Source: Candidatus Woesearchaeota archaeon (lineage in GTDB: Archaea; Nanobdellota; Nanobdellia; Pacearchaeales; GW2011-AR1). From it: 48,568 nucleotides of DNA. Shown one piece after another: positions 6,486 to 27,176 of the stretch (within the stretch, counting starts at the first letter, position 1; each line of letters begins with the position of its first letter). The position numbers and the translations under genes are program-made. Location of the stretch: NCBI GenBank assembly GCA_964572995.1, contig CAZNIA010000002.1:1-48568 (forward strand). The letters run 5' to 3'. The notes beneath the pieces were generated by a model. The model made no database searches, was not told where the DNA came from, and saw only the letters and a list, made by a program, of their open reading frames with translations.

Positions 6486-6506
6486 CTCCAAACTATTTTT
6501 TTGATT

Positions 6507-8795: not shown

Positions 8796-8885
8796 TTTTC
8801 TTAATATAAAAATTATGTATTTTTTTAATTCTCCAAAGATTTATTAATTCTTTTTGATTAATGAAATTAAAATAAAGAGGGAATT

Positions 8886-11063: not shown

Positions 11064-11114
11064 ACTAATTTTTATTTAAGTAAATTTTATTAACTATGTT
11101 TTTTTATATTATCT

Positions 11115-11273: not shown

Positions 11274-11437
11274 TGGAACTTACTATAGAGAATTTAATTA
11301 AAATCTTGTTAGGTATTGTGGTTGTGGCTGCTGTTTCTTATGGAATTTATTATTTTTTTAGTAATAATGTAATAGATTTATTTAAAAATGTAGGGGTAAA
11401 TTCCACAGGTAAATTTTTTATGGGACTATTTTTGTGA
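11273..11437 (+). CDS. micro-ORF (54 aa), single-TM protein
   Basis: Not in the ORF track. MELTIENLIKILLGIVVVAAVSYGIYYFF... It is chained to both neighbours with 0-1 nt spacing. Confidence 0.4.
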   Translation: MELTIENLIKILLGIVVVAAVSYGIYYFFSNNVIDLFKNVGVNSTGKFFMGLFL

Positions 11438-11438
11438 A

Positions 11439-11945
11439 ATGATACCATTTAATAAAAAAGGCTTTTTATTGGCAGAAGAAACATTGAAAATAATTATTGC
11501 AGTTATATGTGTACTTTTTTTAGTTTATCTTTTAGCTGCATTATATAATACTAATTCTTCTGATAAAAAATTGAATCAAGCTAAAGAAGTCCTTACTGTT
11601 ACTGATGAAGATTCGAGAAGTATTGAAGCTATTATTTTATCTTTAAAGGAAGGAGATGAGGAAGTAAAGGATATTTCACAACCTTCTGGGTGGTATCTAT
11701 ATAGTTTTGTTGGACAGGAGAGACCTAATTCCTGTTTAAATCAGAGGTGTTTATGTATCTGTCAAAAACCACTTATTGAAAAAATTAATTCTCGTGCTGA
11801 AAAATGTGATGATAAAGGGGTTTGTTTAGTTGTTCCTAATCTTGCAGCATCTGAAATTAACTTGAAGATTGGTTCAGGTAGGAGCGCATTATTTTTAGAA
11901 ATTAAAAAACAAAGCGGCAAAGTTTTCATAGAGGAGAGAATATGA
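11439..11945 (+). CDS. prepilin-like protein with a bacterial-style G|F...E5 N-terminus and a Cys-rich globular part
   Basis: MIPFNKKG|FLLAEETLKIIIAVICVLFLVYLL. Cys cluster CLNQRCLCICQ...CDDKGVC. Confidence 0.6.
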   Translation: MIPFNKKGFLLAEETLKIIIAVICVLFLVYLLAALYNTNSSDKKLNQAKEVLTVTDEDSRSIEAIILSLKEGDEEVKDISQPSGWYLYSFVGQERPNSCLNQRCLCICQKPLIEKINSRAEKCDDKGVCLVVPNLAASEINLKIGSGRSALFLEIKKQSGKVFIEERI

Positions 11946-12043
11946 GTTTTGATGAGGTAATAAAGTATTTAATCTGGATAATCTTTTTTGGTCTGGCTAT
12001 TGTAGGGATTATAGCTTTACTTAAAAAAATGGGTGTTGCATAA
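11942..12043 (+). CDS. micro-ORF (33 aa), single-TM protein
   Basis: Not in the ORF track. MSFDEVIKYLIWIIFFGLAIVGIIALLKKMGVA. Its ATG overlaps the upstream stop (ATGA), and its stop lies 1 nt before the next ATG. Confidence 0.35.
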   Translation: MSFDEVIKYLIWIIFFGLAIVGIIALLKKMGVA

Positions 12044-12044
12044 A

Positions 12045-12989
12045 ATGATTGAAAAAAAAGGAGAAATAACTACACAGCAGATTGTTTTATTGATAATTTT
12101 AATAGTTAGTTTTATTGTTATTCTTCTTCTGATTGTGGGATTTGATTTTTTTGCTCAGTCAGATAAAGAGATCTGTCACAATTCTGTTGTTATGAGGGGA
12201 ACAAAACTTCCTGATGCTGTAACTCCTTTAGATTGTTCAAGAGAGTATATTTGCATAAGCGAAGACGGAAGTTGCGAAAAGATGATTAAACCAGATGTTA
12301 TTAAAGTTAAAACAAAAGAAGAAGTTTATTCTGTTCTTGCAGAAAAGATGGCTGATTGTTGGTGGATGTTTGGAGAGGGAAAAATAAATTATGTTGATCC
12401 GGCATGGAAAAAGAAAAATTATTGTTCAATTTGTACTCAATTAGTTTTGGACAACAGCTTAGAAAATCTAGAAGGAATAGATGGAAAAATAAATCAGGAT
12501 AATTTTTATGCTTATCTTTCTAAAACTAAGATGCCTGATAAAGATGAAAGTTATGCCGCATATCTTTTTGGAGGAGAGGATATAGAGAGACTAAAAAGAG
12601 ATTTATCTAGAAGAGCAGGGCAAGAAGTTACTTTTGGAGAGATTGAATTTAATAAGCCGTATTTTATAGTTATGGGAATTACAAGTGAAGTTAATAGGTA
12701 TACTTGGTATCTTGGAGGAGCAGTCATTGGAGGAGTAGCAGTTATTGGTGCAGCTACGGGAGGGCTTGGCGTTGCAACTGTTTTTACTATTTTAGCAGGA
12801 AATGTAGCAGGAGGAGCAGTTATTGGAGAAGGAGGAATTCAATTTTCTGATTTACTTTCTCCTAAGATAGGAGCAATAGTTGTTGATGGAGACGGCATAA
12901 ACAATAAATTTATGGTCCCTACAATTCAAGAAGCAACTTCAAATGAATTTGATTTATTAAGTTGCGATGAGATAATAACTACCGCTTAG
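12045..12989 (+). CDS. prepilin-like protein (314 aa) with a Cys-containing globular domain and a Gly-rich hydrophobic C-terminal segment
   Basis: MIEKKG|EITTQQIVLLIILIVSFIVILLLIV. The track start at 12033 is a GTG. Gly-zipper-like GGAVIGGVAVIGAATGGLGVATVFTILAGNVAGGAVIGEGG. Confidence 0.6.
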   Translation: MIEKKGEITTQQIVLLIILIVSFIVILLLIVGFDFFAQSDKEICHNSVVMRGTKLPDAVTPLDCSREYICISEDGSCEKMIKPDVIKVKTKEEVYSVLAEKMADCWWMFGEGKINYVDPAWKKKNYCSICTQLVLDNSLENLEGIDGKINQDNFYAYLSKTKMPDKDESYAAYLFGGEDIERLKRDLSRRAGQEVTFGEIEFNKPYFIVMGITSEVNRYTWYLGGAVIGGVAVIGAATGGLGVATVFTILAGNVAGGAVIGEGGIQFSDLLSPKIGAIVVDGDGINNKFMVPTIQEATSNEFDLLSCDEIITTA

Positions 12990-13023
12990 ATAATTTTATT
13001 AATAAGATTTTCATGTTTTTATT

Positions 13024-13440
13024 ATGAATAAAAGAGGAACTATTTTAGTGGAGAATATTGTTTTTTTAATCTTAAATTTACTTTTTCTTTCAATTCTTGT
13101 TTTGTTTTTATTAAGGCAGGGAGGAGGTGCTATTGTTTTGGAAGAAGCGTATTCAAAACAGATAGCAATGGTTATTGATTCTGCAAAGCCAGTTATGATA
13201 ATTCAATTAGATATGGAAAAAGCAAGAAAACTTGCAGAATCAAGAGGAATAGATTTTTCAGAAGCAGTTAAAATAGATGGGAATGTTGTAAGAGTTAAAT
13301 TAACTCAAAAGAGCGGATATTCTTATTCTTTTTTTAATGATGTGGAAGTTTCTTCTAGGGCAATTAAAGATAGTAAAGGAAAATATACTGGGATGTATTT
13401 ATTTTTTGTACAAGAAAAAGGGGTTAATTCAAATGGATAA
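13024..13440 (+). CDS. prepilin-like protein
   Basis: MNKRG|TILVENIVFLILNLLFLSILVLFLL, with Glu at +5 after the putative cleavage site. Confidence 0.6.
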   Translation: MNKRGTILVENIVFLILNLLFLSILVLFLLRQGGGAIVLEEAYSKQIAMVIDSAKPVMIIQLDMEKARKLAESRGIDFSEAVKIDGNVVRVKLTQKSGYSYSFFNDVEVSSRAIKDSKGKYTGMYLFFVQEKGVNSNG

Positions 13441-13494
13441 AAAAGAAAATATAAAATTTTCAATTTTACCTTTTATAAAAAAAGATAAAAAAGG
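13433..13494 (+). repeat. 62-nt direct repeat, copy 1 (5' end of a prepilin-like gene)
   Basis: ATGGATAAAAAAGAAAATATAAAATTTTCAATTTTACCTTTTATAAAAAAAGATAAAAAAGG. It differs from copy 2 at 2 positions by hand alignment. Confidence 0.85.
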
Positions 13495-14020
13495 TGCAGA
13501 TAAAATTCTCTCAATTTACTGGTTTGTTGTTTTAACTCTTGTGGCTGGAGGGGTTTTTGCAATGGTATATGTTTTTTATGGTGCTCCTTCAGATGTTAGA
13601 GAAATCGAAGCAGAATTGCTTGCGCAGAAATTAGCACATTGCATTTCTAGGAATGGTTTAATTGAAGAGAATCTTTTTTTGAATGGGAAGTTTAATCCAG
13701 TTATAAGAACATATTTTACAGATAGATGCGGAATTACCTTTAATGTTGAAGAAGGGTATGCAGATGAAAACCAGATACAATATTTTTATGATATTGAATT
13801 TTACAGTGTACAGGATTTAGTTAATCCAGAGTTTGTAATCTCAGATGGAAATCTTAATTGGAAAGGAGAGTGTTTTATTGAAAAAAGTAATTCTAAAGAT
13901 TATCTTAGATTAGTTAAATGTAAGGAAAGAAGGTTTTATGCTGTTGATAGCGGAAAGAATCAATATTTAATTAAAATTTTATCCGGGGTAGGTAAATCTG
14001 AAAAAAATGTTAGAAAATAA
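13433..14020 (+). CDS. prepilin-like protein with a 21-aa leader (paralogue A)
   Basis: MDKKENIKFSILPFIKKDKKG|ADKILSIYWFVVLTLVAGGVFAMVYVF. The start is chosen by comparison with the paralogue at 14266 and overlaps the upstream stop by 8 nt. Confidence 0.6.
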   Translation: MDKKENIKFSILPFIKKDKKGADKILSIYWFVVLTLVAGGVFAMVYVFYGAPSDVREIEAELLAQKLAHCISRNGLIEENLFLNGKFNPVIRTYFTDRCGITFNVEEGYADENQIQYFYDIEFYSVQDLVNPEFVISDGNLNWKGECFIEKSNSKDYLRLVKCKERRFYAVDSGKNQYLIKILSGVGKSEKNVRK

Positions 14021-14273
14021 GAAAGCTCAAGTTGGTGAAACTATTACTTGGATAATAGCAACAATAATATTAATTGGAATTTTAATTGTATTTTTGTTTA
14101 TTTCTGTTTCTTTATCTAAATTAAAGTCGTTTAAAGCAGATATTAAAGTTAATTCAGAAGAATCGGTTGACTGGATAGAGCTTAAGACAGAAATGGCTTA
14201 CTCTATTAGTTCAGAGAATAAAAATAGAATAAATCTTTGGATTTCCAAAGAAGGGGTATATGATGATGGATAA
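14007..14273 (+). CDS. prepilin-like protein
   Basis: MLENKKA|QVGETITWIIATIILIGILIVFLFI. Confidence 0.6.
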   Translation: MLENKKAQVGETITWIIATIILIGILIVFLFISVSLSKLKSFKADIKVNSEESVDWIELKTEMAYSISSENKNRINLWISKEGVYDDG

Positions 14274-14327
14274 AAAAGAAAATTTAAAATTTTCAATTTT
14301 ACCTTTTATAAAAAAAGATAAAAGAGG
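14266..14327 (+). repeat. 62-nt direct repeat, copy 2
   Basis: ATGGATAAAAAAGAAAATTTAAAATTTTCAATTTTACCTTTTATAAAAAAAGATAAAAGAGG. Confidence 0.85.
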
Positions 14328-14586
14328 AGATATTCCTTTAACTGTTTTAGTTATAGGCGTTTTTGCAGTTTGTATTTTAGCTTTAATTAGTTTTATTTAT
14401 GTTTCTTATAAAGTGAATAAATCTTTTGTAGGTATTGAGATAATGGAGAATGCAAATGCACAAATAGAAGAAGGTCAGCTTAATCATATTTATCTTTATA
14501 AAAAAGTTACGAAGTTGTCTCCTGAATGGGGTTTTGATTGGTTTAAAGAAAGAATAATTTTTTCTGTTGAATATAATCCCAGATAG
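14266..14586 (+). CDS. prepilin-like protein with a 21-aa leader (paralogue B)
   Basis: MDKKENLKFSILPFIKKDKRG|DIPLTVLVIGVFAVCILALISFIYV. The first 62 nt are near-identical to 13433-13494. Confidence 0.6.
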   Translation: MDKKENLKFSILPFIKKDKRGDIPLTVLVIGVFAVCILALISFIYVSYKVNKSFVGIEIMENANAQIEEGQLNHIYLYKKVTKLSPEWGFDWFKERIIFSVEYNPR

Positions 14587-14663
14587 ATTTTATATTAAAA
14601 ATATTGAAAGAAAGGTTTTTAAATAAGTGTTGAGTAAATAAATTATTAAATAACAAAAAGAAG

Positions 14664-14999
14664 ATGATAAACAAAAAAGGTCAAGGTATGAGTATAAGCA
14701 CAATAGTGCTTCTTGTTTTGGGGCTTATTATACTAGTTGTATTGGTTTTAGGATTTGTTCTTGGATGGGATAAAATTGTTCCATGGATAGGGGGGGGAAC
14801 TAATTTAAACAATATTGCTACTGCTTGTACAACTGCTTGTTCTACAAATGCAGTATATGATTATTGTTCTATTATGAGAGAAGTTAAGGATGGGGAAAAT
14901 GATAAGTTTGAAGCTAATTGTAATGATTTAGCTACTAAACCTCAATATGTATCAAGAGGATATGGAATTTCTCCTTGTCCTGCGATAACTTGCCCTTAA
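14664..14999 (+). CDS. prepilin-like protein, candidate major pilin (own promoter, 6 Cys in the mature domain)
   Basis: MINKKG|QGMSISTIVLLVLGLIILVVLVLGFVLGW is a textbook archaeal class III signal peptide. A 77-nt AT-rich spacer with TTTTTAAATA precedes the gene. Confidence 0.7.
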   Translation: MINKKGQGMSISTIVLLVLGLIILVVLVLGFVLGWDKIVPWIGGGTNLNNIATACTTACSTNAVYDYCSIMREVKDGENDKFEANCNDLATKPQYVSRGYGISPCPAITCP

Positions 15000-15032
15000 T
15001 TAAATTTTGATTGAATTTATTTATACTTGAAA

Positions 15033-15146
15033 ATGTCTAACTCTGCTGCTTCTGAAAGAAGAAATAAAGGAAAAGATAAACGTAAAGAAAAAAAGAAACA
15101 TCCTTATAGAAAAGGTGGAAAATATAGAGTTGTTGAACTTAAGTAA
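15033..15146 (+). CDS. micro-ORF (37 aa), highly basic peptide
   Basis: Not in the ORF track. MSNSAASERRNKGKDKRKEKKKHPYRKGGKYRVVELK. It lies between the pilin gene and the peptidase gene. No homology recognised. Confidence 0.3.
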   Translation: MSNSAASERRNKGKDKRKEKKKHPYRKGGKYRVVELK

Positions 15147-15176
15147 ATTTATAAATTAAATTTACTACTTTTGTTG

Positions 15177-16022
15177 ATGGCAATAGAAGAGGTGTTTTTG
15201 ATAGTTTTTAGTTTAGTTTGGATTATATTTGCAGTTGTGCAAGATTTAAGAAAAAGAGAAATAGCAAACTGGCTTAATTTTTCTTTTGTGATCTTTGCTT
15301 TAGCATTCAGGTTTTTCTTTTCTTTGTTTACAGAAGAAGGATTCAATTTCTTTTACCAGGGAATTATTGGTTTTGCAATATTTTTTATTGTGGGGAATCT
15401 TCTTTATTATGGAAGAGTATTTGCAGGAGGAGATGCTAAATTAATGATTGCTTTAGGGGCTGTGCTTCCTATGTTTGATAATTTCCCTTCTAACTTATAT
15501 TTTTTCTTGGAATTTCTTTTATTCTTTTTAGTTGTTGGTGCAATTTATGGTGTAATTTTTGGAGTTGCTTTAGCAATAAAACATAGGAAAAACTTTACCA
15601 AGGAGTTTTCAAAACAAATAAAGAAAAGTAAAAATGTTTTTTATTTACTTGTTGTTTTAGGAACATTATTACTTTTTTTGTCTTTTGTTAATTCCCTTTT
15701 CTTTTATCTTGCTATCTTGTTTTTCATTTCTCCTTATATTTATTTTTCTGCAAAAGCAATAGATGAAGCATGTATGGTTAAAGAAGTTGAATCAAGGCTT
15801 CTTACAGAAGGAGATTGGCTTTATTTTAATATAAAAATAGGAAAGCGAGTTATTGAAGCAAGATGGGGTGGATTAAACAAGAGTGAAATAGATTTTTTAA
15901 GAATGCACAAGAAAAAAGTTAAAATAAGAGAGGGAATACCCTTTAGCCCGGTTTTCTTGATAAGCTATGTTTTTATTTTGATTTCTTATTTTTTATTTGA
16001 AGGAATTAAGGTATTCTTTTAG
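15177..16022 (+). CDS. A24-family prepilin/preflagellin peptidase (PibD/FlaK/EppA-like)
   Basis: First catalytic-Asp context AVVQDLRKREIANWL and second AGGDAKLMIAL. Polytopic. GIPFSPVF lies near the C-terminus. The track start at 15171 is a TTG; the ATG is at 15177. Confidence 0.7.
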   Translation: MAIEEVFLIVFSLVWIIFAVVQDLRKREIANWLNFSFVIFALAFRFFFSLFTEEGFNFFYQGIIGFAIFFIVGNLLYYGRVFAGGDAKLMIALGAVLPMFDNFPSNLYFFLEFLLFFLVVGAIYGVIFGVALAIKHRKNFTKEFSKQIKKSKNVFYLLVVLGTLLLFLSFVNSLFFYLAILFFISPYIYFSAKAIDEACMVKEVESRLLTEGDWLYFNIKIGKRVIEARWGGLNKSEIDFLRMHKKKVKIREGIPFSPVFLISYVFILISYFLFEGIKVFF

Positions 16023-17074: not shown

Positions 17075-18004
17075 ATGGTACTTGGAAATTATGAAAGAGT
17101 TGTTGATAAAATTGCAAAGCATTCTGGACTTAGTAACGAAGAAGTTACCAGGAAGATAGAAGCTAAAAGGGCTAAACTATCTGGTTTAATAAGCCAAGAG
17201 GGTGCTGCTCAGATAATTGCTGCAGAATTGGGAATAAATTTTGAAAACGAGAAACTTAAGATAGAAGAACTTCTTCCAGGTATGAGAAAAATAAATATTT
17301 CTGGAAAAATCGTTTCACTTTTTCCTGTAAGGACATTTAAAACACAAAAAGGGGAAGAGGGTAAAGTTCTTAATTTTGTTTTAGCAGATGAGACTTCTAA
17401 TATCAAAGTTGTTTTATGGGATACAAACCATATTTCTTTGTTTGAACGTGGAGAGATAAGTGAAGGAGATGTAGTTGATATCGCTAATGGTTCTATGAGA
17501 GAGAATGAAATGCATCTTGGAAGTTTTTCTGAATTCAAGAAAAGCACAAAAGAGATTGGAGAAGTTAAAACAGATAGAGTAGTTAGAGAGAAAAACATAA
17601 AGGACTTTAAATTAGGGGATCAATTATCTGTAAGAGCTTTTATTGTTCAGGCGTTTCAGCCAAGATTTTTTGAAGTCAATAAACAAACAGGAAAGAAACT
17701 AACTGAAGAAGAAAAAGCACAGGGAGTTCCAACAGATAGAAGAGCTTTAATCAATTTGGTTTTAGATGATGGAACCGAGACTATGAGAGCAGTTTTATTT
17801 AACGAAACTCTTTCTTCAATAGGACTTAAAGATTTAGAGAACTCTGAGAGATTACCTTATCAGATGGAAGCGATTCTTGGAAAAGAAATGGTTTTTTCAG
17901 GTAATGTAAGAAAAAATAATTTTTTCAATAATGAAGAATTCATAGTTGATGGAGTTAAAGAAGTTAATTTGGATGAATTAATCTCTCAACTTGAGAAGAA
18001 ATAA
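17075..18004 (+). CDS. RPA-like single-stranded DNA-binding protein (two OB-fold-like repeats)
   Basis: N-terminal helical domain. Two segments have the OB-fold-style pattern (ISGKIVSLFPVRTF...VLNFVLADETSNIKVVLWD and a second, LSVRAFIVQAF...LVLDDGTETMRAVLF). Confidence 0.55.
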   Translation: MVLGNYERVVDKIAKHSGLSNEEVTRKIEAKRAKLSGLISQEGAAQIIAAELGINFENEKLKIEELLPGMRKINISGKIVSLFPVRTFKTQKGEEGKVLNFVLADETSNIKVVLWDTNHISLFERGEISEGDVVDIANGSMRENEMHLGSFSEFKKSTKEIGEVKTDRVVREKNIKDFKLGDQLSVRAFIVQAFQPRFFEVNKQTGKKLTEEEKAQGVPTDRRALINLVLDDGTETMRAVLFNETLSSIGLKDLENSERLPYQMEAILGKEMVFSGNVRKNNFFNNEEFIVDGVKEVNLDELISQLEKK

Positions 18005-18023
18005 TTTTTTTAATTTGAATTAA

Positions 18024-18032
18024 TTTTATAAA
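18024..18032 (+). promoter_or_regulatory. TATA-box-like element for the giant surface protein gene
   Basis: TTTTATAAA is centred about 26 nt upstream of the ATG at 18054. Confidence 0.35.
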
Positions 18033-18053
18033 TGTATTTTACCTATCAATATA

Positions 18054-21000
18054 ATGAAAAGAGGTTTAATTTTATGTTCGATATTTTTAATATTTTTAAG
18101 TGGGTTTGTTTCTTCAGAAATAATTTCAACTAATCTCCAGGTTTATCCTTCCATACCTATTTCTTCACAAAACCTTAGTTGTAATTTTAGTGTTTTAAGT
18201 AATTCTTCTAGTTTGGGTATTACTGCAGAATATGTTTGGTATAAAAACGGAAAAATTAATTTTAGCAATTCTTTTCTTATAAATAATAATACTCAATATT
18301 CTATTTCTTTGCTTTCTGGAAATACTACTGAAAATGATATATGGGTCTGCAGTTTAAGATTTAATGATAGCGTATATACAAATTATTTTAATTCAAGTGT
18401 ATTTGTTAGAGGAGAACTTTCAATTGATAGAGCTTTAATTAATTACAGAAACTCTAGCAATAGGTTGGTTTGGGGAAAAATGCTTGAGAAAAGATTGGTT
18501 GGAGAAGGAGCTATATATAATTCAGATATGGGTTCTTATTTTGGGCGTGCTCCTATGGTTTTCAATGAAGATGGAAGTGAAGCCCATGTTGTTTTTAGAG
18601 ATGGGGGTTATAATTTAAGAATTTACAAATTTAATTGGATTAATTGGGCCGAAATGCAGAATCAAGGTGCTGCAAATCGTAGAGGTTCAATCTCTGTTGA
18701 TAGATATGGAGATACTTTAATTGCTATTTGGGGAGATAGTGATTTAGATGATGAACCTCCTGTTTATTCAATTTCTTTGGATGGGGGAACTACTTGGAGT
18801 AGTGAAGAATTTATTCCTTCTGCATATAATAAATTTGGATATGGGAATACTTTAGAGTTTAAATTTTTAGATGATGGAACTGGTATCGCTATTTGGAAGT
18901 CTTATGATTCAGGGATAGGATGGGCTTATGCTTATTGGAATGGTACAGGGTGGGAACATTTAGGAATTGTTTTGGATTCTAATACTGGAGCAGTAGGTAG
19001 GGCTGATTTATCTATTCTTCCTGAAGGAAGGGCTTTTTTAATTTATCAGAATTCAAATCCTCGTGTTTATTCTTGGAATGGAAGCGGTTTTAGTGATGAT
19101 GTTTATTTAGACACTTCTACAAATGGAGATGATCATAATGGCCCTACAATTGATTGTAATAGAAATGGGCAGTGTATTGCTGTTTGGACTGATTCAACTT
19201 ATGAACAAGAGTATATGAGATATAATGGGAGTTCATGGATTGGATTACCCAATATAGACATTGATGGAACAAGTTCTTGGAGTGATTCTCATGCGCAGGC
19301 TCCAAATGATATTCAGGTAGATGATGAAGGGAACGCTTTTTTGATTTGGTATGATGAGTCGGAAGTTGATGTTCTTTATGCAACTTACAATTGGTCAACA
19401 GATAGTTGGACACAAGGACAAGATTTTATTTCTTATACTACTTCAGACATTGAATATGGGGATAGTGCTCAGGTAGCTCTTGTTCCTTTGAATCAAGAGA
19501 TGTTTGCACTTCCAATTGAAGTAACTGCTATTTTAAGCGACGACGAAGTTTTTAAAAATGAATCTGTTCAAGGATATTGTTCTTCTTTGGATTTAGATAA
19601 CGAATCTGTTAATTATGTTTATAGATGGTATAGAAATGGATTGTATAATTATTCAGGTAATTTTTCTGGATTTGCTAATGGTACATCTATTTTAGCAGAT
19701 ACTTTGTTTTCAAACAAAACTTCTAGAGGAGATACTTGGACTTTTTCTTGTTCTGCAAATGATGGAAATGGACAAGTATTTAGTTCTAATGTTAGTTTTT
19801 ATGTTGTTACTCCTAGAAATTCTCTTCATTTTGAAAATTCATTTCCATTATCTGTGGATGATTTAATTTGTAATTTAAGTGTTATTAATCCAGAAGTCCC
19901 CACCGGATTAACTGCGTACTATACGTGGTATAAAGATGGGGTTTTACAATCTTCAGGAAATTTTCCTGCAAGTCATTCCGAAAGTTATGAATTAATTATG
20001 AGCAGTGATAATACTAGAACAGATGAAATTTGGACATGTTCTGCAATGGTTTCAGATGGTGTGGTTAATGGTACTTGGAAAAATACTTCTGTTATTGTTC
20101 GTATGAAGACTTCTATTTCTGATGCGTTTGTGACTTGGAATGATGCAAGTTATCGTCCTATTTGGACTGCAATAACTGGAAATAATTTTAGTAATAAAAC
20201 AATTAGTTCTACTAGAGTTTTATCTTCTGGAGGTTCAAATCTTGTAAGATTTGTTTTAAGCCCTGGATTGTATGATGGAAAGCTTATTTATAATGCTGCA
20301 GATGGAGATATTTACATGTTTGATTGGAATGGCACTTCTTGGGGAAGTGAAACTATGTTTGCAGATCAATCAGATACAGACAACACATACGATGTTGCAA
20401 GGTTTGGAGATACAATCATTGTTCTATGGGGAATCTCTGATTCATCAGTACCGTATTATCGGATTTCTAGGAATGGGGGAAGCACTTGGAGTACTCAAAC
20501 AAGGATAGAATCCTCAACTTATGGTAAATTTTCCTATCATTCTGGTTTAGATTTTGAATTTTTAAGTGATGGAACAGGACTTTTACTTTATAAGCATTCA
20601 GATGGTACTACCGGTTGGATTTGGTCTTTTTGGAATGGAAGTATTTTTTCTGAATCTGGGATTTTAGATGAAACAGATGATGGTCAACATGCAAAAGCTA
20701 GTATTGCAGCTTTGGAAAATGGGAAAGCATTTGTTGTTAGACGTAGTGGAGATATGTCTCAAGTATACCTAAATAAATGGGATGGAACAATTTTCGAATC
20801 AAGGGTTACTTTAGATTCAACTACTTTTGGTTATCCTGGGGGACCAGAAATTGAATGTAATAGATATGGAAATTGTTTAATGGTTCATAGAGCTTCAGAT
20901 GGAAATTTGGAATATATGAGGTATAATGGTTCTTCTTGGAGTGAACAAGATGTGAATGTTGATGGAGCTTTAACATGGTCAATTAATTATGAGAATTCAG

Positions 21001-23615
21001 TTATAGATTTGGCAATGGATGATTATAATAATTCTATTCTTGTATGGTATTCTTCAGATAGATTGGAAATTCGCTGGGCAAATTATAGTTGGGAGGAAGA
21101 TTCTTGGATATATCAGGGAGTTTTAGGTGTCCCTCATCCTTCTTTGAGTTATGGGGATGGAGTTCAAGTAGGATTAAAAATGCCTTTTGATGAAGCTCCT
21201 ATGGCAGTTAATATAACTGAAAAAGGAGATTATAATTCAATTGATCCTTTAGATTCATTAACAATTGAAGCATATATTTATGATCAAGAATCAAATTTTA
21301 ATTTAGGGGTTCTTGAATGGACAAATGGAAATGGGACTTGGAATACCGCAGATGTTTACAATGAAACTCCTTATAATTTCACAACTAGAATAAATGCAAC
21401 ATTTATTCCAGATTCAGAAGGAAACTATACTTATAGACTTTTAATGTATGATGAGCAAGGTAATATGAATACAAGTTTAGACCAAAATGTTGAAGTTTCA
21501 TGGGATTGTTCTTGGTCTGTTAATTCTTCTTTAGGGTCTTTTGCAGGATGGAATGAAATTAAAGATTTGGGAATAATTAATTTATCTAATTTAGGTGATG
21601 AAGAGTATGCAGGAGATTGTTCCCTTGATTTCAGGATTAGTTATAATTTTGATGAAGGGAGAGTTTATTATGATGGAGAATATCTAAAGAATTCAGTTAT
21701 TTATTCCTTGGATGAAAAAGAATCTGTAAATATTTTTGTTGAAGCAGAATTTTTATCTGAAGTAAAAGAAGAAAACCTTGAAATTACTTTTGATGAATCA
21801 AGACAGAGATCTGATTCAAGGTATAAAATTACTTCAGCTACTTTGATTTCAAATCAAGAAGGGCCTTATTTATTTGGAGAGATAACTGGTTTTCCAACAG
21901 TAGTTTATTTAAAAAATTCTGATTTTCTCTTATCTGGATATATTAGAAATTTGATGGGAGATATTGTTATAAATGAAACAAATACAGCATACAATACTAC
22001 AATTGAATGGCAGATTCCTAATGGATTTTCACAGACAAACTCTGGATTATTTTATGAAAATATTTCCGATTTAATTGCTTATCCTGTCACAACTACAGTG
22101 AGTTTTTCAAATTTAGAGAGTATGTCTCCAGGTATTCAAATATTTAATTTAAGTGCTCAAGGAGTAAATTTAACTGGAGAAGAAATAAGAAATAGCTTAG
22201 GAAGTTTAGGATTTTTAGAAGAAGCTTCAATTAATTTTTTATGTTATTATACTTCAGATGGAATTTGTGTAGAAGCTTGTGGGAATTCTCAAGATATTGA
22301 TTGCCCTCTTGATGTAATTGAAGTTTCTGGTGGAGGTTCAGGAGGAGGTGGAGGTTCAGGAGGAGACTTATTTGATAAATCAGAAGCAACAGTAGAATTG
22401 GTTAGAGGTGAAGAACAGTCATTTGTATTAAGAATAGAAAATAAGTTAAGCTTCCCAAAAGAGAATATTTTTGTGGATGTTTCAGGAATAAATTCAGAGT
22501 ACATACAAATAAATCCATCTAATATTTCTTTTTTAAGTAAAGACTCTTATGTTGATGTAAATGTTTCAATCTCTTCTCCAAAATATTTTAATTCTGGGAA
22601 ATATCTTCTTTCATTTGAAATAGATGGAGAGATTATCACAAATAAATCTAGATTACCTTTTAAGGAGTTTAGATATATTACTTTATATGTTGTTGAATTA
22701 AGGAGAGATTCTGCTGTAAATTTGATAAATAAATCCCAAGATATAATTGATGAGATGAATCGTTCTGGTTTAAAGACTGAAAAGTTATTAAGTATATTTG
22801 AGGATATGAAAAAATCCTTAGACAATTATGATTATGACTCTTTAAAAATTAAATATGATAATCTTATTAGGATATACGATTCTGCAGTAGGTTCTAAGCA
22901 GATTATAGAAGAATTAAATTCTAGTATTTATAATGCAAAAAGAAGGGGGATAGATGTTACTGAAACTCAGAAATTATTATTTATAGCAGAAGTAGCATTT
23001 GAAAGAGGAGATTATCTCATGGCATTGGAAAGGTTAGATGAAGCAAGATTAAGTTATGCGCTTGAAGTTAAAGGAGAATTTAATCTTATTTATGAGATTA
23101 GAAATAATCCTTTACAGTATTTAGAGATATTAATGGGATTATTTATTTTTGGCTTTGGAGGTTCTTTAATTAGCAGAAGAGTTTTGTATAAGAATAAACT
23201 TAAACTACTGGAGGAGGAAGAGAAATTGTTACTTGAGCTTATGAAGGTTGTTCAGAGAGACTGTTTCCAGAGAAATAAACTTTCTATGGAAGAATATCAG
23301 GAGGCAATGCACCAATATGAAAATAAATTAAGTGAGGTTATACAAGATAAAATAAGCGTGGAAGCCAAACTTGCAAACCTTATAAAATTAAAATCCAAGA
23401 GAAGTGCTTTAAATCAAGAACGAACAAAACTTGTAGAGATAATGAAAAAAATTCAGATACGTTATTTAAAAGAGGCTAAAGTCGAAACAAGAGTTTATGA
23501 GAATATGATGAAAAGTTATGCCTCAAGATTAAATGAAGTTGAAGAGAAGATTGTTTTCTTAGATGCTCAAGATTCTCTTAAGAAAAGGAATTCTTTTAGG
23601 AGGATATTTAGATGA
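18054..23615 (+). CDS. giant (1853 aa) secreted, C-terminally membrane-anchored surface protein with an internal tandem duplication
   Basis: N-terminal signal-like helix (ILCSIFLIFLSGFVSS). Two ~450-aa repeats each contain an Asp-box-like motif (SLDGGTTW, SRNGGSTW) and YMRYNGSSW. Gly/Ser linker SGGGSGGGGGSGG. A beta-sandwich-like module follows, then a helical stalk and a TM (LEILMGLFIFGFGGSLI). The cytoplasmic coiled coil is ~145 aa. About 50 N-x-S/T sequons by hand count. Confidence 0.85.
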   Translation: MKRGLILCSIFLIFLSGFVSSEIISTNLQVYPSIPISSQNLSCNFSVLSNSSSLGITAEYVWYKNGKINFSNSFLINNNTQYSISLLSGNTTENDIWVCSLRFNDSVYTNYFNSSVFVRGELSIDRALINYRNSSNRLVWGKMLEKRLVGEGAIYNSDMGSYFGRAPMVFNEDGSEAHVVFRDGGYNLRIYKFNWINWAEMQNQGAANRRGSISVDRYGDTLIAIWGDSDLDDEPPVYSISLDGGTTWSSEEFIPSAYNKFGYGNTLEFKFLDDGTGIAIWKSYDSGIGWAYAYWNGTGWEHLGIVLDSNTGAVGRADLSILPEGRAFLIYQNSNPRVYSWNGSGFSDDVYLDTSTNGDDHNGPTIDCNRNGQCIAVWTDSTYEQEYMRYNGSSWIGLPNIDIDGTSSWSDSHAQAPNDIQVDDEGNAFLIWYDESEVDVLYATYNWSTDSWTQGQDFISYTTSDIEYGDSAQVALVPLNQEMFALPIEVTAILSDDEVFKNESVQGYCSSLDLDNESVNYVYRWYRNGLYNYSGNFSGFANGTSILADTLFSNKTSRGDTWTFSCSANDGNGQVFSSNVSFYVVTPRNSLHFENSFPLSVDDLICNLSVINPEVPTGLTAYYTWYKDGVLQSSGNFPASHSESYELIMSSDNTRTDEIWTCSAMVSDGVVNGTWKNTSVIVRMKTSISDAFVTWNDASYRPIWTAITGNNFSNKTISSTRVLSSGGSNLVRFVLSPGLYDGKLIYNAADGDIYMFDWNGTSWGSETMFADQSDTDNTYDVARFGDTIIVLWGISDSSVPYYRISRNGGSTWSTQTRIESSTYGKFSYHSGLDFEFLSDGTGLLLYKHSDGTTGWIWSFWNGSIFSESGILDETDDGQHAKASIAALENGKAFVVRRSGDMSQVYLNKWDGTIFESRVTLDSTTFGYPGGPEIECNRYGNCLMVHRASDGNLEYMRYNGSSWSEQDVNVDGALTWSINYENSVIDLAMDDYNNSILVWYSSDRLEIRWANYSWEEDSWIYQGVLGVPHPSLSYGDGVQVGLKMPFDEAPMAVNITEKGDYNSIDPLDSLTIEAYIYDQESNFNLGVLEWTNGNGTWNTADVYNETPYNFTTRINATFIPDSEGNYTYRLLMYDEQGNMNTSLDQNVEVSWDCSWSVNSSLGSFAGWNEIKDLGIINLSNLGDEEYAGDCSLDFRISYNFDEGRVYYDGEYLKNSVIYSLDEKESVNIFVEAEFLSEVKEENLEITFDESRQRSDSRYKITSATLISNQEGPYLFGEITGFPTVVYLKNSDFLLSGYIRNLMGDIVINETNTAYNTTIEWQIPNGFSQTNSGLFYENISDLIAYPVTTTVSFSNLESMSPGIQIFNLSAQGVNLTGEEIRNSLGSLGFLEEASINFLCYYTSDGICVEACGNSQDIDCPLDVIEVSGGGSGGGGGSGGDLFDKSEATVELVRGEEQSFVLRIENKLSFPKENIFVDVSGINSEYIQINPSNISFLSKDSYVDVNVSISSPKYFNSGKYLLSFEIDGEIITNKSRLPFKEFRYITLYVVELRRDSAVNLINKSQDIIDEMNRSGLKTEKLLSIFEDMKKSLDNYDYDSLKIKYDNLIRIYDSAVGSKQIIEELNSSIYNAKRRGIDVTETQKLLFIAEVAFERGDYLMALERLDEARLSYALEVKGEFNLIYEIRNNPLQYLEILMGLFIFGFGGSLISRRVLYKNKLKLLEEEEKLLLELMKVVQRDCFQRNKLSMEEYQEAMHQYENKLSEVIQDKISVEAKLANLIKLKSKRSALNQERTKLVEIMKKIQIRYLKEAKVETRVYENMMKSYASRLNEVEEKIVFLDAQDSLKKRNSFRRIFR

Positions 23616-24466
23616 GGAGTATTAATAATATAAAAGGATTATGTTTGTTTATCTTTTTTATTTTGAGTTTTAACTTAATATTTGCTGAACAAGAGTTAGC
23701 TTTAGAAGATAAAGCTAGATTATGTTTAGATAATTCTGAGATAACCTTAAATGAGCTTAAAGATAATAACTTTAATTATCAAAGGGTTGAAGATCTTTTA
23801 ATTAAAGCCAAAAGCATCTATGATGCCCAAATTATTTTGTTTGAGAATGGAAAATCTGTTGATTTTTCTTTAGTTTTTCCATATTGTGAAGAAATAGCAA
23901 ACATAAGAAATTTTGCTTTTGATGTGGAAGATAAGTACTCTTCACTAAAGAAATTTTATGAAGCATCTATAACTCCAGATATGAATTCTTCTAGTATTGA
24001 AAAATTATTTTTGGAAATAGAAGAAGAGATAGATAGTGAGAGATATGAAAGAGTTCCGGAATTGATAAATAAGGCATATGAGGAGATTAGTGTTGTTAAG
24101 TCTTCTAATACAAAATTAAATTTATTTTATAAATCAACAACAAGAAGTTTTAAGAGATTCATTGAAAAGAACTGGATAATCATTCTGGTGTCTACTTTGT
24201 TAATCTTACTTTTCTTTCTTATATTTAACAAAAAAATAAAGATTTTTATTATAGAGAGAAATATAAAAAATCTAGAATTAAGAAGAAAGACAATACAAGA
24301 TCTTATGAAAGAAACTCAATTGGATTATTTTCAAAAAGGAGTTATTTCTCAAGGTAATTTTAATTTAAGAACCAAAAAATTTGCAGAATTTGTTAGAGAT
24401 ATTGATAGACAAATCCCTCTTTTAAGAGAGGATTTAATAAAATTGAGAAATCCACATAAAAGATGA
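23612..24466 (+). CDS. membrane protein repeating the stalk/TM/coiled-coil-tail architecture of the giant protein
   Basis: ATGA overlap with the upstream stop. N-terminal signal-like helix, ~160-aa helical ectodomain, TM (WIIILVSTLLILLFFLIF). The tail motif LELRRKTIQDLMKETQLDYFQKGVISQGNF parallels LEEEEKLLLELMKVVQRDCFQRNKLSMEEY in the giant protein. Confidence 0.7.
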   Translation: MRSINNIKGLCLFIFFILSFNLIFAEQELALEDKARLCLDNSEITLNELKDNNFNYQRVEDLLIKAKSIYDAQIILFENGKSVDFSLVFPYCEEIANIRNFAFDVEDKYSSLKKFYEASITPDMNSSSIEKLFLEIEEEIDSERYERVPELINKAYEEISVVKSSNTKLNLFYKSTTRSFKRFIEKNWIIILVSTLLILLFFLIFNKKIKIFIIERNIKNLELRRKTIQDLMKETQLDYFQKGVISQGNFNLRTKKFAEFVRDIDRQIPLLREDLIKLRNPHKR

Positions 24467-24921
24467 AAGAATTTAATGAGATGACTAAAAAAGAGAAAGA
24501 AGACTTTCTATCTATGGACCTTATTGAGAGACTTATAAGGTTAGAACAAAGAGTATCCGCTAGTTTTGGAAATTTTGTTCATTATTCTGAAACAGAATAT
24601 TTCAAGAGTTTATCTGGAACGAATAAAAATAGTTTTATTAAATATTTGAAGAGCAATAAAAGAAAGAAATATGTACTTTTATTTTTATTTTCATTGTTTG
24701 CTTTGTTCTCTTTGTTGTTTAGGGGAAATATATCCGGTAATGTTGTTTCGGATGTAATTTCTTTTTCCGATTATTTTCCAAGTCTTATATTTTTTACATT
24801 ACTGTTTATATTTATTCTTGTAATTTTAATTACATTATACTTTAAAACTAAAAAAGAAAAAAGATTTAAGAGATATTTTGGTTTGATTGAAAGAATATAT
24901 TCTTTAAAAACAAAAAAATAG
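24463..24921 (+). CDS. small 2-TM membrane protein with a ~68-aa cytoplasmic N-domain
   Basis: ATGA overlap with the upstream stop. Two hydrophobic helices (VLLFLFSLFALFSLLF, LIFFTLLFIFILVILITLYF). Confidence 0.6.
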   Translation: MKEFNEMTKKEKEDFLSMDLIERLIRLEQRVSASFGNFVHYSETEYFKSLSGTNKNSFIKYLKSNKRKKYVLLFLFSLFALFSLLFRGNISGNVVSDVISFSDYFPSLIFFTLLFIFILVILITLYFKTKKEKRFKRYFGLIERIYSLKTKK

Positions 24922-24951
24922 TTTTTTAAACTAAATAGTTTATATTCTATT

Positions 24952-25734
24952 ATGAAAAGAGGAGAAAAAGAATTTAAACAGGAATTCTTAAAATCTTATA
25001 TCCCTGGTTTTGATGAGTTGATTAAGCCAGGTATACCAGAAGGAAATGCTATTCTTGTCGAAGGTGGTCCTGGTAGTGGAAAAACAATCTTTTGTTTGAA
25101 TGTAGGAGTTAATTCCTGTAGAAAGGGGAAAAAAGTTCTTTATATGAGTTTTGAAGAACCAGAATATAGATTAAAAAGTCATCTTAAAAATTTTGGATTA
25201 GATGTTGAAGAGTATGAAAAAAAAGGGCTTTTGTATATAAAAAGATTTAATGCCCTTGATATTTCTAGAAGTGTGGAAGCTTTGCTTTCAGAAGCAAAAA
25301 AAGAATTGCTTATTGATGTTCAACCAGTTTTAATTCCTACAGAGTTTAAACCAGATATTGTTTTTATAGACTCTTTATCTAGTATTGCAAGTGCTTTTGC
25401 TGGAGAAGAAAACAGATTCAGAATATATATGGAGCAGCTTTTTAGATATCTTGAGAGCCATGAAATAACATCTTTTTTAATTAGGGAAACTGCAAATCCT
25501 ACACATATAGGGGCAACGTTTATTGAGAAGGGAGAAGCAGTGTCTTTTCTTTCAGATGGAATAATTGCAATTTATAATGTTCTTTTTAATAACAGTGTTA
25601 GAGGTAGAGCATTAGAGATTGTTAAAATGAGAGGAGCAGAAATTAAAAGACAAATAGTCGAATGTGATGTTAAAAAAACAGGATTCGTAGTACATCCAAA
25701 TAAGATTATAAAAGGAAATTATAGATTAACTTAA
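24952..25734 (+). CDS. single-domain KaiC-like / RecA-superfamily ATPase (COG0467-type, ArlH size class)
   Basis: IPGFDELIKPGIPEGNAILVEGGPGSGKTIFCLN (Walker A). VFIDSLSS (Walker B-like). 260 aa. Confidence 0.75.
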   Translation: MKRGEKEFKQEFLKSYIPGFDELIKPGIPEGNAILVEGGPGSGKTIFCLNVGVNSCRKGKKVLYMSFEEPEYRLKSHLKNFGLDVEEYEKKGLLYIKRFNALDISRSVEALLSEAKKELLIDVQPVLIPTEFKPDIVFIDSLSSIASAFAGEENRFRIYMEQLFRYLESHEITSFLIRETANPTHIGATFIEKGEAVSFLSDGIIAIYNVLFNNSVRGRALEIVKMRGAEIKRQIVECDVKKTGFVVHPNKIIKGNYRLT

Positions 25735-25840: not shown

Positions 25841-26164
25841 ATGGATTTTAGAGAGTATTTCACAATTAAAGCACAAAATAATCTTTCATTTGAAGAATAT
25901 ATGAAGAATATTGATGAAGCCCTTGGTCAAGACGCATTACACTTAAAACATTCCTTTCAAAATACTGTTATGGATAATGATTATGACCGAATTGTTTTTA
26001 ATCAGATAATCTTAAAAAAGGATTTTTATTTAGATATAAACTTTATTTTAGGAGGTTCAAGAGAATATCTTAAACTAAATGGAGTTATTTTTGCATCTTC
26101 TGATGAAAAGATTAACAATACAAAAAATAAATTAGAGGAAATATGTGGAGTTAAGCATGCCTAA
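25841..26164 (+). CDS. hypothetical protein
   Basis: 107-aa ORF with a TATA-like CTTTATAAA about 25 nt upstream. It overlaps the radA start by 8 nt. Confidence 0.45.
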   Translation: MDFREYFTIKAQNNLSFEEYMKNIDEALGQDALHLKHSFQNTVMDNDYDRIVFNQIILKKDFYLDINFILGGSREYLKLNGVIFASSDEKINNTKNKLEEICGVKHA

Positions 26165-27176
26165 AGAAAAAGAAACTGAAGAATTGGAAGAGAAAGAAGA
26201 AAAGAAATCTAAAAAGAAAGGTGATAAAGAATTAAGTTTAATGGATTTACCTGGAATAGGACCAGCTGTTGCTGCTAAACTTGAAGGAGCAGGAATATTT
26301 GATTTAATGTCTTTGGCTGTTTCAAGTCCTGCTACAATTTCTGATGTCTCTGGTGTAAGCCCTGCTGTTGCTAGGAAAGCTATACAGGCTGCACGTGAGA
26401 TGCTGGACTTAGGGTTTCAGGATGGAGTTGAATATGCTCAGAGAAGGTCTAATGTTTCATATATAACAACAGGAAGTAAAAATTTTGATGAACTTTTGGG
26501 AGGAAGAGGAATTGAAAGCAGAGCTATAACAGAAGCTTTTGGAGCATATGGTTCTGGTAAGACTCAGCTGGGCTTGACTTTGGCAGTCAGAGTTCAGTTA
26601 CCAGTTGAGCAGGGTGGTGCTAATGGTAAGGCTGTATTTATTGATACAGAAGGGACTTTCAGACCAGCAAGAATAAAACAAATTTCTGAAGGCATTGGTG
26701 CAAATCCAGAGAAAGTCCTGAAAAACATTTTTGTTGCAAGAGCATTTAATTCAGATCATCAAATGCTTCTTTTAGAAAAGATAAATGAAATGGTAAAAGC
26801 AGGGGAGCCAATAAAACTTTTGATTATAGATTCTTTAACAGCGCATTTTAGAGCAGAATTTTCAGGAAGAGGACAATTAGCAGACAGGCAACAGAAACTA
26901 AACAGATATTTACATGATTTAATGAAGTTAGCTGAAACTTATAATTTGGCAGTGTATGTTACAAATCAGGTCATGGCAAATCCTGCGCAGATGTTTGGAG
27001 ATCCAACAACTGCTATCGGAGGAAATATTGTGGGGCATGCATCAACATATAGATTATATCTAAGGAGAGGAAAACAAGGTTCAAGAGTAGCTAAACTTAT
27101 TGATAGCCCAAACCTTCCAGATAATGAATGTGTTTATTATGTTAATGCTGGTGGCGTGAGTGATAAAGAGGAGTGA
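26157..27176 (+). CDS. radA: DNA repair and recombination protein RadA
   Basis: N-terminal HhH (LMDLPGIGPAVAAKLEGAG). Walker A GAYGSGKTQ. Walker B LLIIDSL. Overall RadA/Rad51 layout. I prefer the ATG at 26157 over the GTG at 26145. Confidence 0.93.
   Translation: MPKEKETEELEEKEEKKSKKKGDKELSLMDLPGIGPAVAAKLEGAGIFDLMSLAVSSPATISDVSGVSPAVARKAIQAAREMLDLGFQDGVEYAQRRSNVSYITTGSKNFDELLGGRGIESRAITEAFGAYGSGKTQLGLTLAVRVQLPVEQGGANGKAVFIDTEGTFRPARIKQISEGIGANPEKVLKNIFVARAFNSDHQMLLLEKINEMVKAGEPIKLLIIDSLTAHFRAEFSGRGQLADRQQKLNRYLHDLMKLAETYNLAVYVTNQVMANPAQMFGDPTTAIGGNIVGHASTYRLYLRRGKQGSRVAKLIDSPNLPDNECVYYVNAGGVSDKEE

Follow-up and report, generated by a model that had tools for sequence, protein, structure and literature searches.

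The window analyzed here is a 48,568 nucleotide (nt) stretch of AT-rich DNA (GC 27–33%) from a Candidatus Woesearchaeota archaeon (contig CAZNIA010000002.1, assembly GCA_964572995.1). It contains a cluster of four genes, g1 to g4, coding for a very large surface protein, a headless paralogue of this protein, a protein with two transmembrane helices (TM) and an ATPase of the KaiC family. Gene content, topology, paralogy, fusions between g1 and g2, a conserved linkage to KaiC and an alternative linkage of KaiC to pilus genes are all established. We propose, as a tentative reading which we consider quite possible, that g1–g3 form a lineage-specific envelope complex of Nanoarchaeota of the Woesearchaeales/Pacearchaeales type, whose cytoplasmic tails would recruit a KaiC hub ATPase also used by the type IV pilus machine.

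The four genes are found on the + strand (Table 1). Stop and start codons overlap as ATGA between g1 and g2 (23612–23615) and between g2 and g3 (24463–24466). The g3 stop codon (TAG, 24919–24921) is followed by a spacer of exactly 30 nt and by the g4 ATG at 24952. Direct reading of the sequence confirms the coordinates, strand, lengths, overlaps and spacer given in a preliminary description of this DNA. The topologies it suggested for the first three proteins also agree with our hydropathy scan. In g1 there is an N-terminal hydrophobic signal at amino acids (aa) 6–24, a single TM at aa 1689–1707 and a 146 aa tail rich in Lys and Glu; the 50 N-x-S/T sequons are all in the predicted ectodomain, none in the tail. 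The g2 protein has a signal segment (aa 7–25), an all-helical ectodomain, a TM (aa 187–205) and a helical tail of about 80 aa. The g3 protein has a conserved N-terminal domain of about 68 aa, predicted to be cytoplasmic and containing the motif LSMDLxERxIRxEQ, then two TMs (aa 70–88 and 107–125) and a short basic C-tail. None of the three matches any Pfam or NCBIfam family above threshold.

Paralogy and fusions of g1 and g2

Profile comparison shows that the stalk, TM and tail of g1 have a true paralogue in g2. On pairwise BLASTP alone (E 0.27, not significant) this relationship would be dismissed, so profiles are needed. Profiles made from small alignments of related loci match with a score of 93.3% (E 2.7e-7). 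When 30 and 40 homologues from databases are aligned, the hhalign score rises to 99.0% (E 3.4e-18). The match extends collinearly over 198 columns, which correspond to the helical stalk, the TM and the proximal tail. Independently built alignments give 98.4% (E 9.5e-15). The g3 protein, which also has TMs, was used as a negative control: It scores 5% and 0.3% and is unrelated to g1 and g2. The similarity of the two tails noticed in the preliminary description is therefore statistically real, and the fusions described below reinforce it.

The tails contain a helical motif of about 40 aa. The tail segment of the g2 hidden Markov model (HMM), positions ~215–270, matches g1-type tails twice, so the g1 tail contains two tandem copies (about aa 1718–1760 and 1786–1830), with a single copy in g2; the three copies align by eye. 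Some residues of the g1 tail are invariant across 30 homologues, including Q-x-[DE]-x-F and Y-E motifs, and the g2 tail motif RDIDRQIP (aa 262–269) is near-invariant. Pfam scans of the isolated g1 and g2 tails and of the g3 N-domain, at E up to 10, found nothing meaningful. A SHOCT-like reading of the motif has no support in these scans.

The g2 family is abundant. When 1.84 billion representative proteins were searched with its profile, 1372 clusters at 50% identity were recovered, 916 of them at E 1e-10 or better, and all of them are named "hypothetical". The ectodomain is a helical bundle with a conserved cysteine pair (C38, C92). The AlphaFold 2 (AF2) model, with a predicted local distance difference test score (pLDDT) of 91.6, is all helical, with a near-continuous helix from aa 145 to 242 which passes through the membrane.

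Five large proteins (P0261, P0266, P0272, P0274 and P0326) contain an entire g1 with an entire g2 after it, and P0278 has the reverse order, g2 first and then an entire g1. That the two are fused in either order is a classical sign that they act together. A heteromeric pair of single-pass proteins is indicated by the paralogous stalk, TM and tail, by translational coupling and by the fusions. In the fusions, the g2 "signal peptide" would serve as an internal TM. Several g2 homologues have two additional TMs or long C-terminal extensions rich in Lys and Glu. The g3 HMM does not match the extra TMs found after g2 in P0299, P0327, P0337 and P0339, nor those in P0326 and P0261, so calling them g2–g3 fusions is not justified. 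We have also discarded a 235 aa open reading frame (ORF) in L088 with a weak match to the g1 tail: By sequence it appears to be an unrelated cytoplasmic protein.

Gene neighbourhoods in related organisms

Two scans were carried out. One was anchored on g2 (one genome per species, g2 alignment as query) and gave 13 loci. The other was a metagenome scan anchored on KaiC, as we shall call the g4 orthologues: It gave 80 loci, mapped with HMMs and BLASTP, of which the 66 with at least 1 kb of flank are considered informative. Three initial look-ups gave different arrangements: g2-g3-KaiC lacking g1 (L004/L005), a KaiC gene immediately following pilus genes and separated from g2 by 3 kb (L001), and a g2-g3 pair at a distance of 4 kb from KaiC (L002).

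In the g2-anchored scan, KaiC is found within a few kb on every contig which is long enough. The order of the genes changes: g1-g2-g3-KaiC-RadA (L006), KaiC-g1-g2-g3 (L007, L011, L016), g1-g2-KaiC (L009), g2-g3-KaiC (L010, L017, L018), g2-g3-KaiC with only g3 reversed (L013) and g1-g2-KaiC with KaiC reversed (L015). In the KaiC-anchored scan, g2/g3 are directly adjacent to KaiC in 41 of the informative loci, g2/g3 and pilus genes are both present in two, and three have the order KaiC-g1-g2-g3: Module genes adjoin KaiC in 46 of 66. Nine loci have pilus genes only and 11 have neither, most of these with short flanks. When at least 3 kb are available on both sides (20 loci), 16 are linked to the module, three to pilus genes and one to neither. 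The four genes co-localise in many divergent contigs of Woese-, Pace- and Nanoarchaeota in spite of rearrangement. The neighbourhood check proposed in the preliminary description thus comes out in favour of linkage.

What follows on the far side of KaiC varies, with 21 gene families represented in 32 loci, so the inner adjacency is not merely part of one large syntenic block. A 4 nt overlap is the modal junction both for g1/g2 (12 loci) and for g2/g3 (15 loci), and the gap between g3 and KaiC clusters at 30–45 nt. The g1 gene is directly upstream of g2 in 32 of the 42 informative distinct g2 loci. Homologues of g3, 31–53% identical, directly follow g2 in 43 loci.

In the window, the cluster is placed between an RPA-like gene and radA, and a PDB search with the g4 protein matches RAD51 paralogues and SSO2452, which we take to be a RadA paralogue. 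The KaiC-like gene might then be a RadA paralogue (aRadC/RadB-like) which acts in recombination with RPA and RadA and has nothing to do with g1–g3. We consider this extremely improbable and have rejected it as an identity for g4. Only 2 of the 80 loci have a RadA orthologue less than 2 kb from KaiC, which also disposes of the idea that KaiC stays next to radA regardless of g1. In L001, L012 and L088 the place between RPA and RadA is taken by g2 instead of KaiC. The RadB model (TIGR02237) gives 24 bits, with a cut-off of 172, and the best PDB matches are KaiC CII domains.

The KaiC-family ATPase

By its Pfam score and motifs, g4 is a single-domain KaiC-family ATPase, as first described. It matches PF06745 with 150 bits (cut-off 26.6), aa 14–251 covering profile positions 2–230 of 231. 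Aligned to KaiC CII, it contains a Walker A motif (GGPGSGKT, 38–45), SFEE (66–69), FIDSLS (138–143) and KMRG (225–228), which include the catalytic E68/E69, the Walker B D140 and Arg227. Ser198 aligns with S431 of KaiC, with Phe199 in place of T432.

Several more specific identities were tried. The circadian KaiC proper was rejected: g4 has a single 260 aa domain instead of tandem CI and CII, and its scores are below the equivalog cut-offs (NF006799, 107.5 bits against 408; TIGR02655, 67.3 against 546). ArlH/FlaH was also rejected, as g4 is below all the cut-offs: NF052589, 43.9 against 215; NF004723 (FlaH), 49.6 against 194; NF006320, 28.6 against 215. Four NCBIfam KaiC-like subfamilies give 93 bits (TIGR03880, cut-off 249), 82.7 (TIGR03877, 307), 71.5 (TIGR03881, 248) and 32.2 (TIGR03878, 232). 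Judging from these scores, g4 is a member of a separate, very conserved archaeal KaiC subfamily, outside the four scored. Its orthologues are 68–89% identical across contigs labelled Woesearchaeota, Pacearchaeota and Nanoarchaeota. Among the PADLOC defence models there is no match for g1–g3, and g4 only has weak P-loop matches (E 1.8e-5 or worse).

L002 contains two distant KaiC paralogues, 10920–11624 (-) and 17964–19486 (-), which are 24–30% identical to g4 and are found beside V4R-domain proteins. The g4 orthologue is therefore one of several KaiC-like genes in such genomes.

Some KaiC orthologues (L010, L026, L057, L064, L067 and others) have an N-terminal extension of 130–220 aa, rich in Lys and Glu. 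These extensions contain a short amphipathic motif, for example SRSFFSFLFGKK or SRGFFSFFFGKK, including GFFSFLFGKK, which we take to resemble the membrane-targeting sequence of MinD. Similar motifs are found at the end of many g1 tails (NSFRRIFR in the window, GFFSSIFKSK in L011) and recur in extended g2 tails. This is suggestive of extended KaiC orthologues working at the membrane.

Transcription of the KaiC gene

The 30 nt spacer contains the sequence AGTTTTTTAAAC, about 25 nt upstream of the KaiC ATG, which looks like an archaeal promoter with a B recognition element (BRE) and a TATA box. Of 58 distinct loci, 30 have a [GC]TTTT(T)AAA motif between -50 and -20 of the KaiC ATG; its position peaks sharply at -30 and its consensus is about AAAGGTTTTTAAAT. 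It is found upstream of only one of 45 g2 genes and of none of 37 g3 genes; the background is 0.011 per 38 nt window. The motif looks like an archaeal BRE/TATA at a distance suited to an mRNA with a short leader or none. It is present whatever gene precedes KaiC, including the loci where KaiC is directly behind the prepilin peptidase. Since this element is kept about 30 nt upstream whatever the preceding gene is, KaiC probably has a separate, leaderless transcript. The T6 run in AGTTTTTTAAAC (24922–24927), directly past the g3 stop codon, may also terminate the g1–g3 transcript. The TATA-like TTTTATAAAT, whose centre is about 26 nt before the g1 ATG, is a possible promoter of a g1-g2-g3 operon, weakly indicated in such an AT-rich genome (28–32% GC); other loci show no conserved promoter motif before g1. 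The preliminary description treated the four genes as a unit. The linkage part of that claim stands, but KaiC does not appear to be simply the last gene of an operon.

A small ORF of 48–52 aa, with the strand-helix-helix pattern typical of ribbon-helix-helix (RHH) DNA-binding proteins, is found directly upstream of g1 in L007, L077, L011, L034 and L037, where the order is KaiC-x-g1 with this ORF as x. In L016 it is about 1.1 kb upstream of g1. It may be a dedicated regulator. Genes which by eye are nucleotidyltransferase/HEPN-like are also inserted in the KaiC–g1 interval or immediately before g1 in some loci (L016, 2199–3178; L092, 2327–2824).

There is another possibility: KaiC might be a soluble regulator of the GvpD/CirA type, which controls the expression of the adjacent g1–g3 and pilus genes without docking on any tail. 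Its own conserved promoter motif would agree with this, and the RHH-like ORF in the KaiC-x-g1 loci suggests a transcriptional circuit. KaiC-family proteins are known or predicted to act on the expression of gas vesicles, type IV pili and archaella (PMC4858521; PMC10983859). On the other hand, the window has no RHH gene, the conserved tail motifs and the g3 N-domain would be left without a partner, and the membrane-targeting-like extensions of some KaiC orthologues would be unexplained. We consider this explanation unlikely.

Link to type IV filament loci

A type IV filament locus is found upstream of the cluster (Table 1). As had been pointed out initially, it has no KaiC-like gene of its own: g4 is the only KaiC-like gene in the window. 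Only a HIT gene, an EF-1-beta-like gene and RPA are found between this locus and g1. Among the window proteins scanned there is no match to ArlF/G/CDE/X or archaellin models, and the pilus genes are 9–18 kb upstream of g4.

In other genomes the link is closer. The prepilin peptidase gene of a T2SSE/platform/pilin locus is immediately followed by the KaiC orthologue in L001, L012, L072, L080–L083, L088, L091 and L097. L001, L012 and L088 have the same backbone as the window, except that KaiC is found at the peptidase, while g2 has stayed between RPA and RadA. In L035, platform, peptidase, KaiC, g2 and g3 are contiguous on one strand. The window, L001/L012/L088, L056, L068 and L096 have pilus genes less than 10 kb from g2. 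A regulatory role has been predicted for KaiC-family ATPases encoded beside type IV pilus loci of archaea (PMC4858521), an idea repeated in a study of Nanohaloarchaeota (PMC9563170).

The module might thus be a part of the pilus machine itself: g1–g3 would be its trans-envelope scaffold or stator and KaiC an ArlH-like motor accessory, a sub-assembly similar to ArlX/ArlCDE-ArlF/G in archaella or to PilN/PilO-PilM in bacteria. Apart from the ten or so loci with KaiC behind the peptidase, the arrangement of L035 and the pilus genes found less than 10 kb from g2 in several loci, this idea has the attraction of a known design: In PilN/PilO-PilM and GspL/GspM, paralogous bitopic proteins with coiled coils form pairs which tether an ATP-binding protein. 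Nevertheless, most long module loci have no pilus gene within 10 kb (L007, L009, L011, L016, L020, L029, L034, L037, L039, L092 and L093), the ArlH equivalog score of g4 is far below its cut-off, and hypervariable heads are better suited to an adhesin or receptor than to a stator. We regard this explanation as decidedly unlikely.

The g1 ectodomain

From its sequence, g1 is predicted to be a type I membrane protein with a signal peptide, a variable head, a conserved base of beta-sandwiches, a helical stalk, a TM and a cytoplasmic tail. The head is a tandem duplication of about 460 aa (18135–21176, aa 28–1041), whose two repeats are 33% identical (E 8e-77). Each contains an Ig-like part and a domain with an Asp-box (SLDGGTTW in the first, SRNGGSTW in the second), which may have a propeller fold. 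An extra Ig-like copy is found between the repeats, at aa ~494–570.

The name "giant surface protein" used in the preliminary description is only partly justified. The N-terminal 1045 aa are variable between lineages: Among g1 homologues, they have a counterpart only in the closest relatives (L006, L019). The conserved component, common to many loci at 36–49% identity, is limited to residues ~1045–1853, the C-terminal 800 aa or so. Homologues range from 809 to more than 2300 aa, and their N-terminal parts contain F5/8-type-C, LamG-like, RCC1, BNR or Ig-like domains, or are nearly absent. The AF2 model of the g1 core (mean pLDDT 81.8) shows about five beta-sandwiches, a Gly-rich linker, one further beta-sandwich, a helical bundle, the TM and three long tail helices. 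A search of PDB sequences with g1 gave nothing better than E 0.02.

A large glycosylated beta-sandwich protein followed by a small protein with a stalk and a TM resembles the slaA–slaB layout, so g1 and g2 might be the canopy and anchor of a surface layer (S-layer) of the SlaA/SlaB type, with KaiC linked by genomic inertia or shared regulation. Matches of the core model in Foldseek include SbsC and the Haloferax S-layer entry 7ptp, but they are generic Ig-arrays with a TM-score of about 0.1. There is no sequence match between g1 and S-layer proteins in Pfam, NCBIfam or PDB. Moreover, g1 has its own TM and a conserved 146 aa cytoplasmic tail, it is missing beside g2 in 10 of 42 loci, and the linkage to KaiC outlasts rearrangement and changing outer neighbours. 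An S-layer pair is therefore quite improbable.

A possible mechanism

In the explanation we favour, g1 and g2 would be single-pass paralogues which pair through their extracellular helical stalks and TMs. The g1 protein would add a conserved beta-sandwich "leg" and exchangeable heads binding something outside, plausibly a host surface, and g3 would be a small accessory subunit with two TMs. On the cytoplasmic face, three helical motifs of about 40 aa (two from g1, one from g2) and the g3 N-domain would recruit the separately transcribed KaiC ATPase, a hub which would also serve the type IV pilus machine. The heads would sense contact, which would be transmitted along the continuous ectodomain, TM and cytoplasmic helices to the KaiC ATPase or autokinase switch, which would then act on pilus or surface activity. 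We favour this outside-in direction because KaiC-family proteins are slow ATPases or autokinases working as switches and because continuous transmembrane helices resemble sensor architectures.

The opposite direction, also suggested in the preliminary description, may be considered as well: ATP hydrolysis by a KaiC hexamer would drive a change, extension or assembly of the g1/g2 ectodomains, in the manner of FtsEX/MacB or of integrins. The catalytic residues of KaiC are intact, and helices are near-continuous from ectodomain through membrane to tails in the AF2 models. However, the data do not distinguish the direction of action, the KaiC family consists of slow switch ATPases or autokinases, and we know of no example of one of its members doing mechanical work across a membrane. 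Such an energised device is improbable.

Our proposal may be made more specific: an integrin-like heteromer, found only in woesearchaea and pacearchaea, with swappable host-binding heads and with three tail motifs as the docking site of a KaiC hexamer that acts as a gate for the type IV pilus. Taken with all these details, it is possible but doubtful.

Several points weigh against the proposed complex. Pairing of g1 with g2, docking of KaiC on the tails, the outside-in direction and a host as ligand are all inferred only. The surveyed loci belong to related organisms and are not phylogenetically independent; only exact duplicates have been removed. The KaiC gene appears to be its own transcription unit, not strictly co-transcribed with g1–g3. 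The module is not always complete: g1 is absent from 10 of the 42 informative g2 loci and g3 from about 10 loci, the L001/L012/L088 lineage has g2 alone, 3 kb from KaiC, and the long locus L026 has a KaiC with neither partner near. Structural comparison, suggested in the preliminary description, was carried out with the AF2 models of g2 and of the g1 core and found no specific neighbour for either. With g2, Foldseek only finds long-helix noise in the PDB (E 0.027 or worse); with the g1 core, generic arrays of Ig, FN3 or macroglobulin domains with a TM-score below 0.2.

If the proposal is correct, the module would connect host recognition in episymbiotic archaea directly, at the molecular level, with attachment or uptake, and KaiC signalling in archaea would have its first input from a membrane receptor. 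The module would also be a handle on two little-understood questions: how DPANN archaea recognise their hosts and stay attached to them, and where the signals reaching the many archaeal KaiC-like ATPases come from. In any case, it is widespread, with variable heads, conserved TM and tail parts and a conserved ATPase which is also found at the pilus locus, and it adds three new protein families for annotation.

Other features of the window

The features we have located are collected in Table 1. Housekeeping genes of archaeal type are also present in the window: RPA, RadA, SRP54, FtsY and a split Hef-like nuclease/helicase. The last of these refers to two adjacent, overlapping genes which look like a split Hef-like protein: 853–1557 (-), an ERCC4 nuclease with a HhH domain, and 1554–3110 (-), a DEAD/Helicase_C helicase. 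A 107 aa ORF between KaiC and radA, 25841–26164 (+), overlaps with the GTG codon taken as the start of radA. No family matches it, no homologue is present in any of the loci fetched, and in L006, the closest relative, the RadA-homologous ORF starts 33 nt past KaiC. This ORF may be lineage-specific or not a gene.

Table 1. Location of features in the window and, where a locus is named, in related loci.
Feature	Position	Strand	Remarks
Type IV filament locus	6462–16022	+	Pfam, NCBIfam matches; class III signal-peptide-like N-termini
T2SSE ATPase	6462–8795	+	
Polytopic platform protein	8886–11063	+	Large membrane protein
Pilin-like genes	11115–14999	+	About eight small proteins
Prepilin peptidase	15171–16022	+	
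RPA-like gene	17075–18004		
TATA-like element TTTTATAAAT	18024–18033	+	Possible promoter
g1	18054–23615	+	ORF, 1853 aa
g1 head repeat 1	18135–19481	+	aa 28–476; Ig-like domain and Asp-box domain; weak Ig_2 match
g1 head repeat 2	19824–21176	+	aa 591–1041; Asp-box
g1 conserved base	21186–22694	+	aa 1045–1547; about five beta-sandwich domains, Gly-rich linker (aa 1426–1437), one further beta-sandwich; homologues 39–49% identical
g1 extracellular helical stalk	22704–23105	+	aa 1551–1684; AF2 helices; paralogous to g2 ectodomain
g1 transmembrane helix	23118–23174	+	Hydropathy scan; helix in AF2 model
g1 cytoplasmic tail	23175–23612	+	aa 1708–1853
g2	23612–24466	+	ORF, 284 aa
g3	24463–24921	+	ORF, 152 aa
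BRE/TATA-like element AGTTTTTTAAAC	24920–24931	+	Inside the spacer before g4
g4 (KaiC-type ATPase)	24952–25734	+	ORF, 260 aa
radA	26145–27176		
Extended KaiC ORF, L010	3798–5114		
Extended KaiC ORF, L026	9341–10762		
Extended KaiC ORF, L057	2625–4007		
Extended KaiC ORF, L064	602–1924		
Extended KaiC ORF, L067	1839–3260		
RHH-like ORF, L007	4133–4279		
RHH-like ORF, L077	3830–3976		
RHH-like ORF, L011	4052–4201		
RHH-like ORF, L034	6843–7001		
RHH-like ORF, L037	10883–11035		
RHH-like ORF, L016	1886–2032		

Comparison with known systems

No description of the g1–g3/KaiC gene set was found in the literature searched, which does not include the neighbourhood tables of the 2017 KaiC hub study. 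The three membrane proteins have no Pfam or NCBIfam model and no name beyond "hypothetical", so the gene set may still be called undescribed, as was claimed at the beginning. Regulation by KaiC proteins linked to archaeal surface and pilus systems is already known: What is new is the g1–g3 families of membrane partners. The concept of a KaiC hub is due to Makarova et al. 2017, as cited in PMC5847659.

Integrins provide a functional analogy only. Both systems have variable heads (here including Asp-box modules, possibly propeller-like), beta-sandwich legs, a single TM and a short tail. Integrins consist of two related single-pass chains, and a heteromer of g1 and g2 is predicted here. Integrin alpha chains are among the Foldseek matches, as generic beta-sandwich arrays with a TM-score of 0.14–0.16, which does not imply homology. 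Unlike integrins, the cytoplasmic partner of the module is an ATPase.

In PilM-PilN-PilO and GspL-GspM, two related bitopic proteins pair via extracytoplasmic coiled-coil or helical regions and use a short conserved segment on the cytoplasmic side to tether an ATP-binding protein of the cytoplasm, and their genes are beside pilus genes. No sequence or fold relationship with the module has been detected (Pfam; Foldseek of g2). The cytoplasmic partner in the module is of the RecA/KaiC class, not actin-like, and one of the membrane partners has a giant variable ectodomain.

The archaellum has a KaiC-like single-domain ATPase, ArlH (FlaH), near a type IV-type ATPase and a platform protein, a situation similar to that of g4. 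ArlX is a membrane-anchored protein with cytoplasmic coiled coils. On the other hand, g4 fails the ArlH model, and g1 and g2 are predicted type I proteins with large extracellular parts, unlike ArlX. FlaH is known to interact with FlaI (PMC4858521).

KaiC-family ATPases encoded in or beside archaeal type IV pilus and archaellum loci are predicted regulators (Makarova, Koonin and Albers 2016, PMC4858521). The g4 protein is likewise a single-domain KaiC protein with intact catalytic motifs, and in some lineages its gene is located behind the prepilin peptidase. In our case, the predominant partner is the membrane set formed by the g1 core, g2 and g3, not the pilus locus.

We should finally consider the haloarchaeal GvpD and CirA, KaiC-family regulators of the expression of gas vesicles (GvpD) and archaella (CirA). 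They act in the cytoplasm on transcription factors. As in our module, a KaiC-family protein is encoded beside other genes, in their case those which it regulates (PMC4858521; PMC10983859). In contrast, the conserved neighbours of KaiC described here are membrane proteins with conserved cytoplasmic tails.

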